A stretch of DNA of 64,000 bases from Escherichia coli. GTDB lineage: Bacteria > Pseudomonadota > Gammaproteobacteria > Enterobacterales > Enterobacteriaceae. The position numbers were made by a program. Of this stretch, positions 45,001-49,067 are shown one piece after another. The stretch lies in NCBI RefSeq assembly GCF_045037415.1, contig NZ_CP173440.1; one strand, written 5' to 3'. Position 1 is the stretch's first letter, and every line of letters starts with the position of its first letter.

Positions 45001-48000
45001 ATCAGGCTCTGGAACTGATCAAGACGCGTTATGCTGATTTCGGTCCGACTCTGGCGCGTGAAAAGCTCGAAGAACTCCACGGACTGTTTCTTGGCAAAGA
45101 AACTGTCCGGCGCATCATGGTGCGGGCTGGCTTATGGGTTCCCCGTAAACAACGTGCCGCAAGGATCCCTCAACCACGGTACCGGCGTCCGTGTACTGGT
45201 GAGCTGATACAAATAGATGGCTGTGATCACGACTGGTTTGAAGGCCGTGGCCCGGCCTGCACCGCGCTGGTCTATGTTGATGATGCAACCAGCAAACTGA
45301 TGGAACTGTTGTTTGTTAAATCGGAGTCCACGTTTTCTTACTTCGAAGCCACGCGGCGCTATATCGATAAGCATGGTAAACCGCTGGCACTGTACAGCGA
45401 TAAAGCCGGTGTTTTTCGTGTTAACAATAAACACGCCACAGGCGGAGACGGGCATACTCAGTTTGGGCGAGCCATGCATGAACTGAACATCCAGACTATC
45501 TGTGCAGAAACCAGTCCCGCCAAAGGGCGTGTAGAACGAGCTCACCTCACTTTACAGGATCGTCTGGTCAAAGAGCTGCGGTTACAGGGCATTGGTTCAA
45601 TGGAGGCTGCAAATGACTTCGCTGAGGCCTATATGGCTGACTATAACCGCCGTTTTGGCAAAGTACCGCGACATGATTTTGACGTACACCGTGCTGTAGA
45701 ACATGATGAGGACCTGGGGCTTATTTTCACTGTTCGTGAAAAACGTAAAGTCTCAAAATCGTTGACGATACAATATGATAAAATGTTGTACCTGATTGAA
45801 GACAGCGAACTGAGTCGCCGTGCAATAGGTAAATATATCGATGTGTATCACTATCCTGATGGCAGAAAAGAGCTGCGCCTGAACGGTACGCTACTTCCCT
45901 ACTCTACCTACGACCGACTGTCAGAAATCGACCAGGGCGCGATTGTCGATAACAAGCGTCTTGGCCGAACCCTGGAGTTTATCAGTCTGGTGCAGAGCAA
46001 GCGGGATAACACGCGCTCTCAGTCAATTCCCGCTGGAGATGGCCCTTCCCGACGACGGCCAAAGCAGGAAGGGAAGAAATCCCAGCGCTCACTGGATAAT
46101 GATGACATGCTCGAAGCACTCAAACAGCTTCAGTCACGTTCAGAGGACATTTTTGGTAAAAGAGCCCGCTGATGGTACTCACTGGCCGGACAGTGGTTGC
46201 TCACCAGTTGATATTGTCCGGCCAGACCCATGATGTATTATTCATTTCGTTCAGCATCTTTATGTCCTGCTTTTCACGGGCATACTTACCCCATAATGAA
46301 TGAAAAGAACGAACAATACTGATTAACTGCTTTTTTCTTTGCTCCGGAGATAAGCTGATAAAATAGCAGCACCTGCTGTCAATATTATCCTCTATGAAAT
46401 TAAAATCAGAGTCTGATGCATATTTTACTGTTAGCATAATATCATTCGACGTTGTTCTCTCAGACTCTGTTAATGCTGATTCTATCAGGTATTCAAAGGC
46501 ATACATGACAGACAACTGGTTTTTGTCTGTCTGAATATAACCCATTGAGTTTCTGAGTATTGAGGACTGTACCAGGACCAGAGGCCATAAAAGCTCAACA
46601 CCATAAAGCTTATATGTATCATGTTGATCATACTGATGTTGCTCAACACGACGATTACCTTCCCGTGCTTTACGAATATCATAGGCAAGGGATAACATAA
46701 ATCCGTCTTTAACTTTAATCAGTGGGCTTTCATCCACGATGTAATGAATGAGTTCATGTAATTCATTCAGGGCTTCTGAATCTCCCCACAGTATAAAACC
46801 TGCATTGTTCGGCGTTAACTCGTATCGAAGCATGGGCTCAATCATCCTGTTGTTTCAGTCGGAGGAAAGTCTATCAGTAAAGAGAATGAGAGATCAAAGT
46901 GGACATTTTAATTGAGCCGGATAACGGACATTTCAATTGAGCTTTGACAAATGCTGTCAGCACAAAGCGTTATTGTCGTCTCAGCACAATTCACACGCGT
47001 CGTGTACGCTAAGCCTTCATTTTGCTCAGCACAGGACCGCGATCTTATATTGGCTAGACAAAGTCTGTAACTCCAATATTCTAATGTCACTTTTGGGGCT
47101 GCGGATGTTTTCCTGGACTGTTATGTTGTGATCCCAAGATGCTGCCGGTACTTCACCGGACTCATTGCACCTAATGATAGTAGACTGGCCCCATGAATCT
47201 CCAGACAGTTGGTATAACTTAAGTTAGTGATAGTCTTAATACTAGTTTTTAGACTAGTCGTTGGAGTCCGGATGATTGATGTTTTAGGTCCAGAGAAGCG
47301 CAGACGGCGCAGTGTTCAGGAAAAAATCGCCATTGTTCAGCAGAGCTTTGAACCCGGTATGACCGTCTCGCTGGTCGCCCGGCAGCATGGTGTTGCCGCC
47401 AGTCAGCTGTTCCTGTGGCGCAAGCAGTATCAGGAAGGCAGTCTTACCGCCGTTGCCGCGGGTGAACAGGTTGTGCCCGCGTCGGAACTGGCATCGGCAA
47501 TGAAGCAAATTAAAGAACTGCAGCGCCTGCTGGGCAAGAAAACTATGGAAAACGAGCTGCTGAAAGAAGCCGTTGAATATGGCCGCCAAAAAAAGTGGAT
47601 AGCGCACGTGCCCTTGTTGCCGGAGGATGGCGAATAAGCCTTGTCAGCCGTTGCCTCCGGGTCTCACGTGCGCAACTGCATGCCATGGCTCGTCGGTCGA
47701 AGAGCTGGCAGGATCGTCGACGCAAGCGCAAGCCTGATGATACTGAAGCGCTGGACCGTATCCAAACCGTTATTGGCGAGCTGCCAACGTATGGTTATCG
47801 TCGGGTGTGGGCACTGCTGCGCAGACAATCAGAAACTGACGACATGGCCATTATCAATGCCAAACGCGTATACCGCATCATGCGTCAGAATGCGCTGCTG
47901 CTTGAGCGTAAACCTGCAATACCGCCCTCGAAACGGGCGCATACAGGGAAAGTGGCTGTAGGGGAAAGTAACCAGCGGTGGTGCTCTGACGGCTTCGAGT

Positions 48001-49067
48001 TCAGGTGTGATAATGGCGAAAAACTGCGTGTAACGTTCGCACTGGACTGCTGCGATCGTGAAGCCCTGCACTGGGCGGCCAGTACCGGTGGATATGACAG
48101 CGAAACCGTGCAGGACGTCATGCTGGGTGCGGTGGAACGACGCTTCGGCAGCAGCCTGCCAGCATCCCCAGTAGAATGGCTGACAGACAACGTTCAGCTT
48201 ATCGTTCTCATCAGACGCGTCAGTTCGCCAGAATGGTAGGACTGGAGCCTAAACATACGGCGGTACGCAGCCCGGAAAGCAACGGGATGGCAGAGAGCTT
48301 CGTCAAAACGATGAAGCGCGATTACATCAGCATCATGTCGAAGCCCGACGGGTTAACAGCGGTAAAGAACCTTGCGGAGGCCTTCGAACATTATAACGAA
48401 TGGCATCCGCATAGTGCGCTGGGATATCGTTCGCCACGGGAATATCTGCGGCGGCGTACCAGTAATGGGTTAAGTGATAAAAAGTGTATGGAAATATAGG
48501 GGCCAATCCAGATAGCTTGATACGTTTCTCGTTATACCAGCGTATGTACCTGTCCAGGAAGCAGATAAATTTTTCCAGCGTGATACCAGCCCAGTTTCTG
48601 CCATAGAACATTTCGTTTTTGATACGCCCGAAGAAGCCTTCACACGCAGCATTATCCGACGAGCATCCTTTGCGCGACATGGACCTTATAAGTCCGGATG
48701 TGTTGATACGATCGAGCCAGCCCGGCCACCGGTAATGGCCACCACGATCGCTGTGTATTACCGGTTTATCATGTTCGTTGAGCGTATCGAGTGCTTCATA
48801 GAGCATCGTATTCACCAGCGTCGCGTCCGGGCGTGTTCCTATCGACCAGCTTACAACCTAGCCATCAAAGCAGTCGATAACCGGCGACAATCAGCTCGTA
48901 TTCTTCTGCAAGTTGCTTATCCAGTTGCCCCTGACTGTGAGCCTGAAATGCGTGAGCTATTTGCCCGTTGATATGCCGAATCAGTGGTGACAGATCGGGA
49001 AACACATACTGGACTGGTGAAAGCCTAGGAACAGGAAGAGGTCGCTCATTTTGTAAACAGGGAATCA

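Follow-up and report, generated by a model that had tools for sequence, protein, structure and literature searches.

A defective IS2-group insertion sequence nested in an ISKpn38 remnant beside a plasmid Xer site

Introduction

What has become of a transposable element whose transposase gene is broken at a single nucleotide, and why did several such elements settle one inside another at the same place? The question is raised by a 64,000-nt stretch of Escherichia coli plasmid DNA (contig NZ_CP173440.1 of RefSeq assembly GCF_045037415.1), hereafter called the window. Here, an insertion sequence (IS) resembling IS2 interrupts the remains of another IS3-family element, and its transposase gene, orfB, is split by the apparent loss of one base. 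The split could be an artefact concealing an active element, a lesion that the element bypasses, a change tolerated in an element retained for regulation, or the lesion that ended its activity. A preliminary description of the window had reported an element with IS2-like termini, an intact orfA and a frameshifted orfB, lying in a zone of decayed ISs between conjugative DNA and a zinc island. We report that the element is a member of the IS2 group by descent, but defective. Very probably, it is a fossil of ordered, nested transposition beside a plasmid Xer site, inactivated by a 1-nt deletion.

Results

The IS2-type element begins with TAGACTGG and ends with CCAATCCA (Table 1). In alignments, its imperfect terminal repeats matched the IS2, ISEc27 and ISEc36 references from end to end, and the left inverted repeat (IRL) carried private substitutions at two element positions, 13 and 36. 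The inverted repeats of IS2 are about 42 and 41 bp long (PMC3299598), and those of the window element correspond to them. The pentamer GATAG is found on both flanks. Three ISKpn38 references are continuous across the insertion point, and the alignments of the two flanks to these references overlap by exactly the same 5 bp; GATAG is therefore a true target-site duplication rather than a chance repeat. IS2 likewise duplicates 5 bp of its target (ISfinder). Both features expected for the IS2 group, a 5-bp duplication and imperfect repeats about 41/42 bp long, are thus present at 47181-48510, and the termini are intact as previously described.

orfA is also intact. Its product of 121 amino acids scored 265.3 bits against the NCBIfam model 'IS2 repressor TnpA' (cut-off 229). 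The two genes show the layout of the IS2 group: orfB lies in the -1 frame relative to orfA and opens at an A-rich slippery motif, where the two consecutive open reading frames (ORFs) overlap. In IS2 the slippery window is A6G (PMC3219604). The A7G run of the window element arose by substitution, so the frames of orfA and orfB are not fused.

The lesion in orfB, previously placed near 48200, was localized by alignment: the sole indel in 1331 columns is a G absent from AAC[G]GTTCA, between 48191 and 48192. With this G put back, orfB encoded an uninterrupted protein of 301 amino acids that scored 598 against NCBIfam 'IS2 transposase TnpB' (cut-off 597), and only in this restored form did OrfB exceed the cut-off. 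With the deletion repaired and a -1 shift at A7G, the predicted OrfAB fusion has 409 amino acids including D240, D306 and E342, and its numbering reproduces the D306 and E342 published for IS2 (PMC3219604). In the sequence as it stands, the frame is lost after D306-N307, and the predicted product has 322 residues (307 native and 15 aberrant), which retains D240 and D306 but not E342. An autonomous IS2-group element has the three DDE residues (D240, D306 and E342) in one frame; the window element does not. Because E342 is out of frame, no active transposase is predicted, and the element would be immobile by itself. The NCBI Prokaryotic Genome Annotation Pipeline (PGAP) labels it in RefSeq as 'IS3 family transposase, frameshifted', a pseudogene. 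Promoter and terminator scans of 46900-49200 gave nothing above background.

Table 1. Positions of the IS2-type element, its host remnant and the neighbouring features in the window
Feature	Position	Strand	Remark
ISCfr12-like element (ISL3 family), intact	43306-44621	+	1316 bp; 8-bp duplication ATATATAT at 43298-43305 and 44622-44629
Xer site (xrs/pdif-like)	44639-44666	+	XerD arm ATTTAACATAA, spacer CGCACA, XerC arm TTAAGCGCACT
ISKpn21 (IS1202 family), intact	44672-46949	+	2278 bp; 5-bp duplication AATGC at 44667-44671 and 46950-46954
Left-end relic of a second IS1202-family element	46955-47004	+	putative relic; ISKpn65-like size
Relic of an IS1202-family (ISAba32-subgroup) left inverted repeat	47066-47094	+	29 bp; target of ISKpn38 insertion
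ISKpn38 remnant, terminal piece	47095-47180	-	right end with inverted repeat and last transposase codons; end set from full-length 1599-bp copies
Target-site duplication, left copy	47176-47180		GATAG, 5 bp; adjoins IS2-type element
IS2-group insertion sequence	47181-48510	+	1330 bp; aligned to ISEc36-, ISEc27- and IS2-family copies; non-autonomous, unnamed
IRL	47181-47222	+	extent by analogy with the 42-bp IRL of IS2 (PMC3299598)
orfA, intact	47272-47637	+	121 amino acids; HTH_Tnp_1; IS2 repressor TnpA subfamily
Slippery A7G run	47589-47595	+	programmed -1 frameshift, orfA to orfB
orfB, 5' part	47595-48239	+	native -1 frame; premature stop 15 codons past the deletion
1-nt deletion site	48191-48192	+	one G of AACGGTTCA; codon G308, D306-N-G-S motif
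orfB, 3' part	48193-48499	+	out of frame; encodes E342 region and C-terminus
Right inverted repeat (IRR)	48470-48510	+	about 41 bp; identical to ISEc36/ISEc27
Target-site duplication, right copy	48511-48515		GATAG, 5 bp; adjoins IS2-type element
ISKpn38 remnant, inner piece	48511-48889	-	transposase residues about 367-490; cut at 48889/48890 with 4-bp microhomology
In-frame nonsense codon of the ISKpn38 remnant	48858-48860	-	TAG; CAG in ISKpn38
Fragment of an unrelated plasmid gene	48890-49038	-	149 bp, cut at both ends; between ISKpn38 stump and hemB

The nucleotide identity of the element was 93.6% to ISEc36/ISEc27, the closest named relatives, and about 82% to IS2-family copies. By the ISfinder convention, copies of the same IS share roughly at least 95% of their nucleotides; near-identity to the IS2 reference, as for the same IS or an isoform, was not observed. 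'IS2-like' is therefore correct as to the group, but the element is not IS2 itself. It shares with IS2 of Escherichia coli the 1331-bp frame, TA...CA imperfect inverted repeats of about 42/41 bp, the 0/-1 ORFs, the A-run-G slippery site, the 5-bp duplication and the catalytic positions 240, 306 and 342 of OrfAB, but differs at 245 nucleotides, in A7G instead of A6G, and in being one base short with E342 out of frame. ISEc36 and ISEc27 (names given by PGAP, which applies neither to the window element) have the 1331-bp length, the same A7G run, an identical IRR and an identical OrfA; the differences are 84 substitutions, 15-16 amino acid changes in OrfB, the two private changes in IRL and the 1-nt deletion.

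The comparison with ISEc36/ISEc27 also bears on the age of the lesion. orfA differs from theirs by 21-22 synonymous and 0 nonsynonymous changes, its protein being 100% identical, and the ratio of nonsynonymous to synonymous changes (dN/dS) in orfB is about 0.13. Since the divergence is mostly synonymous, the lineage would have remained a functional IS up to a single, late lesion. A lineage-specific 30-mer in repaired form had 0 matches among one genome per species (GTDB); with no intact progenitor found there, the ancestral G rests on ISEc36, ISEc27 and IS2. A second, 459-bp IS2-group orfB fragment occurs in pK2044-type plasmids (locus L001, 615-1073) and is absent from the window. Because it is only 91% identical to window 47829-48286, it represents a different IS2-group lineage.

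If the frameshift were a sequencing or assembly error, the element would be normal and active. The lost base belongs to a pair of consecutive Gs, and single-base indels are a common artefact of assemblies made from long reads only. However, of 585 plasmid records compared with a lineage-specific 70-mer across the deletion, 583 matched it exactly and none contained the repaired 71-mer. Among the exact matches are pLVPK and pK2044, which date from the Sanger era, and numerous hybrid assemblies. The two deviating records also lack the 71-mer; the one listed has a 69-nt match, that is, a further loss. Moreover, a GG dinucleotide is no homopolymer error hotspot. The records span Klebsiella, E. coli transconjugants and an Enterobacter; the virulence and hybrid plasmids of Klebsiella that were listed all have the element at 100% identity, and 580 records are at least 99% identical. 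An error is thus almost certainly not the explanation. Judged by this distribution, the deletion is real, inherited and fixed. The preliminary description had allowed that resequencing might restore the orfB frame (the repaired 31-mer of the deletion site reads ACAGACAACGGTTCAGCTTATCGTTCTCATC), which these records contradict.

A real deletion might still leave the element mobile, if the frame were restored by the ribosome or RNA polymerase, or if a transposase of the ISEc36/ISEc27 type acted in trans. Both inverted repeats are full-length, with the IRR identical to that of ISEc36/ISEc27; the 100% identity of OrfA makes the recognition modules probably compatible, and ISEc36 and ISEc27 relatives are present in plasmids of Enterobacterales. 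The surroundings of the deletion (GACAACGTTCAG), however, contain no slippery run, and IRL carries its two private substitutions. IS3-family transposases are generally held to act preferentially in cis, which also weighs against mobility. Copy number provides a further argument: the 70-mer occurred at 587 places in the 585 records, essentially one copy per plasmid (583 of the 585 records), and at the same site wherever the flanks were read. Continued mobility is therefore highly unlikely. Within the window, no second copy or fragment was found of any of the four ISs.

It is also conceivable that the element has been kept as a domesticated regulator, with OrfA or the truncated OrfAB repressing IS2-group elements or inhibiting them in a dominant-negative manner. 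In favour of this, orfA is intact, exceeds the IS2 TnpA cut-off and has no amino acid change relative to ISEc36/ISEc27, and OrfA of IS2 is reported to repress the IS promoter, close to which it binds (PMC3299598). On the other hand, a single recent lesion in a clonal segment explains an intact orfA without selection, and the near-identical copies give no signal of purifying selection after inactivation. We regard retention for regulation as very unlikely, and the inactivated element as a fossil. OrfA may still be made and, by analogy with IS2 OrfA, repress the element's own promoter. For the element, lying downstream of the convergent hemB operon, no effect on neighbouring genes is evident.

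The DNA into which the IS2-type element inserted is a stump of ISKpn38. Its two pieces comprise the terminal 460 bp (29%) of that element, the 5' 1.1 kb being gone. Identity to ISKpn38 copies was 97.1-98.9% over the 379-bp inner piece and 95-99% over the terminal piece, and the remnant protein was 95.8% identical to the C-terminus of the 510-amino-acid ISKpn38 transposase. The stump is thus ISKpn38 by identity, without being a complete 1599-bp element with an open transposase gene; PGAP labels it 'transposase; internal stop; incomplete'. Compared with representatives of three subgroups, the remnant protein was 41% identical to InsK of IS150 and 32% to InsF of IS3, with no significant match to OrfB of IS2. 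IS150 belongs to the IS3 family like ISKpn38, but it has two ORFs, insJ and insK, whereas intact ISKpn38 has one, and 41% identity indicates relationship at the family level only. The 'IS150-like orfB remnant' with stops of the preliminary description is, accordingly, an interrupted IS3-family remnant that is loosely IS150-like, but it derives from ISKpn38 and contains one stop only (48860-48858). The end of ISKpn38 was first placed at TGCGGATG, which was 5 bp too short; full-length nested copies give GGGGCTGCGG. In intact ISKpn38 (L009, 1640-3172; L017, 6504-8036), the transposase is one continuous ORF of 510 codons with no frameshift annotated, and it has an extra N-terminal helix-turn-helix region before the usual IS3-family modules, which is unusual for the family.

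Upstream of the stump lies a predicted site for XerC/XerD recombination with the consensus structure of two 11-bp arms and a 6-bp spacer. A search with the Xer-site consensus gave one match in the window (1 mismatch; 0.00 expected). The arms are identical to those of the ISKpn21-targeted site of HI1B plasmid CP079726 (Harmer et al. 2023, Table 8, PMC10132070), from which the spacer differs by one substitution (TGTGCG vs TGTACG). As in published IS1202-family elements of the ISAba32 subgroup, whose left ends lie 5-6 bp from the XerC arm with a 5-6-bp duplication, the left end of ISKpn21 is 5 bp from this arm, which ends at 44666, and the element is flanked by a 5-bp duplication, AATGC. The size, target-site duplication and xrs targeting of ISKpn21 have been published (PMC10132070; bioRxiv 10.1101/2022.12.17.520857), and successive insertions at one Xer site have been described (Siguier et al.). 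Mobile elements would have piled up at this spot because of the Xer site and of elements that aim at Xer sites or at each other.

ISKpn21 and the ISCfr12-like element are not themselves decayed. Both have perfect target duplications. In about 28 related plasmids, the site is 99.2-99.9% identical but contains neither the ISCfr12-like element nor ISKpn21; by this comparison, both are late, simple, intact insertions. ISKpn21 contains a transposase gene (44769-46172) and a passenger gene on the minus strand (46201-46845). The passenger protein (214 amino acids) matches Pfam DUF6904 (E 8e-48); the 2023 papers on IS1202 give passenger ORFs without a Pfam match.

The position of ISKpn38 relative to IS1202-family ends recurs elsewhere. 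In pPMK1-NDM, which is 99.7% identical to the left flank of the window, a full-length 1599-bp ISKpn38, flanked by a 3-bp duplication, is nested in the left end of an xrs-adjacent ISKpn21 at an offset of 29 bp, and this ISKpn21 is a different IS1202-family element from the source of the 29-bp relic in the window. We compared 13 ISKpn38 contexts (among them window 47066-47094 with the remnant from 47095; L007, L009 and L017-L025), eight of them from reference genomes of different species. In 11 of the 13, precisely 29 bp of a left repeat of the IS1202 family directly preceded the right end of ISKpn38, in one orientation; the exceptions were L008 and L021. The window remnant agrees with the full-length copies in this orientation and offset, and differs from them in being truncated, in its nonsense codon and in being split by the IS2-type insertion. 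In two full-length copies, the IS1202-family repeat resumes on the far side.

The left repeats have the consensus TGT.a...C.a..t..t.aTGTC....t. and fall into eight types that are identical to each other at 10-21 of 29 positions, except for one pair (27/29), whereas ISKpn38 itself is 97-99% identical. Diverse repeats next to a near-constant ISKpn38 point to repeated, position-specific insertion. From these contexts, ISKpn38 appears to be site-specific for the left repeat of IS1202-family elements. In the literature searched, no description of ISKpn38 targeting IS1202-family ends was found.

Between ISKpn21 and the stump, the nature of the spacer (46955-47094) was read from the flanks of ISKpn38 in other genomes, short-word BLAST against ISKpn21 and other loci being uninformative. 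In Kluyvera and Citrobacter, the same 29-mer with 1-2 substitutions is separated by 5 bp from complete dif/xrs sites, and there too ISKpn38 follows it. The putative relic starting at 46955 shares 98% identity with the left end of a Pluralibacter element of the IS1202 family, about 1.98 kb long, and in plasmids that lack ISKpn21 its start is 5 bp away from the XerC arm. The possibility that 46955-47060 is a complete miniature element of IS1202 type was considered and rejected, because its three CAGCACA repeats all point the same way and the 5-mers on its two sides (AATGC and AAGTC) do not match; only the first 50 bp or so are therefore called a left-end relic.

On the other side of the stump, 48890-49038 showed 91.5% DNA identity to part of a 99-amino-acid ORF in Logan contig L016, and 60% amino acid identity over 30 residues to positions 40-69 of a 323-amino-acid hypothetical protein of a Pectobacterium plasmid. 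It may be a fragment of a gene from a plasmid gene family, although the evidence is modest. For the segment 48890-49064, there was no Pfam or NCBIfam match and no DNA relative outside these plasmids, and its nature was visible only by tblastn and one protein search.

The 'decayed IS landing zone' that had been proposed at 43.3-49.1 kb can therefore be retained for 46955-49038, with two IS1202-family ends, the ISKpn38 stump and the gene fragment, but not for the two ISs upstream, which are intact. A differently decayed version of the zone is found in scaffold3 of the Klebsiella pneumoniae type strain, ATCC 13883 (L022, about 4329-5391, reverse strand). It contains a longer IS1202-family relic, 82 bp of an ISKpn38 end, 35 bp of ISKpn21 and a longer gene fragment beside hemB, and has no IS2-type element. 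Compared with it, the window has an internal deletion in the spacer 46955-47094. The different course of decay in ATCC 13883 indicates that the zone was rearranged repeatedly.

The 12 kb around the IS2-type element is 100% identical to IncHI1B/IncFIB hybrid resistance-virulence plasmids of K. pneumoniae, 310-420 kb in size (e.g. phvKpST395_NDM1_1657). MOBH-type conjugation genes lie to the left of the IS nest. To the right, at 49065-57000, are Zur-regulated zinc-sparing paralogues: hemB, dihydroorotase, an M14 peptidase, a ThrRS paralogue, DUF1460, carbonic anhydrase, folE2, dksA and a COG0523 GTPase; the nest is located downstream of the 3' end of the hemB operon. This cluster of zinc-independent or zinc-sparing paralogues has been described on pLVPK (Haas et al. 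2009, PMC2770081). A boundary between 'conjugative DNA' and a 'zinc island' does lie nearby, and both labels are fair.

The same boundary is a switch of ancestry. Left of the Xer site, the window has a pPMK1-NDM-type backbone, unlike pK2044 and unrelated to pLVPK; the latter two are also unlike each other there. All four plasmids (window, pPMK1, pK2044 and pLVPK) share the XerD arm, and from the XerC arm rightwards the window is the same as pK2044 and pLVPK and unlike pPMK1. The Xer site is thus the exact point at which three different left contexts meet a single right context. The original junction, which was thought to have been possibly erased, is in fact sharp and lies after the XerD arm and before the XerC arm of the Xer site (44639-44666). 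The IS2-type element, 2.5 kb inside the virulence-plasmid-type segment, has no visible part in the join.

From 46950 to about 56000 (9 kb), the window and pK2044 show zero differences; beyond this, they are 2-15% diverged to 63992. No second Xer site was found at the right edge of the identical block (about 56 kb), and this edge, in the folE2/carbonic-anhydrase region, is probably due to ordinary homologous recombination. At the left edge, an exchange inside the 28-bp core would be the signature expected of XerCD site-specific recombination. The plasmid comparison suggests such recombination as a route to hybrid resistance-virulence plasmids. Literature searches combining IncHI1B with pdif, dif modules, XerC or virulence plasmids returned only papers on Acinetobacter and on the IS1202 family.

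Discussion

We reconstruct the events from the nesting order, which is Xer site, IS1202-family element, ISKpn38, IS2-type element. ISKpn38 landed in the left end of an IS1202-family element beside the XerC/D site, at an offset of 29 bp. An IS2-group element, 6.4% different from ISEc36/ISEc27, then entered the transposase gene of ISKpn38 in its 3' part, with duplication of GATAG, presumably by the IS3-family route known from published work on IS2, through a figure-of-eight and a minicircle to integration. Before or after this insertion, ISKpn38 lost its 5' 1.1 kb and acquired the CAG>TAG stop, and one G was lost from orfB of the IS2-type element at codon 308. All these steps predate the diversification of the known KpVP-1-type virulence plasmids and were followed by passive inheritance as a single copy per plasmid, also in the hybrid resistance-virulence plasmid to which the window belongs. 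Later, in the lineage of this plasmid, ISKpn21 (aimed at the Xer site) and the ISCfr12-like element inserted further left.

Several points weigh against this reconstruction or limit its reach. Loss of transposase activity is deduced from the loss of E342, and the ancestral G by comparison with three related elements, not with a sister copy. IRL has changes of its own in addition to the lesion in orfB. Finally, the 585 near-identical copies are one evolutionary observation, silent on selection for orfA.

The dead IS2-type element is an ordinary fossil, already known as a RefSeq pseudogene, and of little importance in itself. The GATAG duplication, the 1-nt deletion, the ISKpn38 stump and the CAG>TAG change together provide a stable marker by which KpVP-1-derived DNA can be recognized in hybrid plasmids. 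Its neighbourhood is more important, as it offers a mechanism for the accumulation of ISs at this place. We lean slightly towards a three-tier chain of site-directed events, in which the Xer site attracts IS1202-family elements, ISKpn38 inserts 29 bp inside their left inverted repeat, and the Xer site is also the crossover of the hybrid. The first tier is published, and the targeting by ISKpn38 is the only possibly new point.

Two leads may thus be of specialist interest, the targeting of ISKpn38 and the crossover at the Xer site in hybrid virulence plasmids. For the latter, the surroundings of the element place the junction between resistance backbone and virulence DNA inside a site-specific recombination site. 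If it is true that XerCD recombination contributes to the assembly of convergent hypervirulent, carbapenem-resistant Klebsiella plasmids, this would be both testable and clinically relevant.

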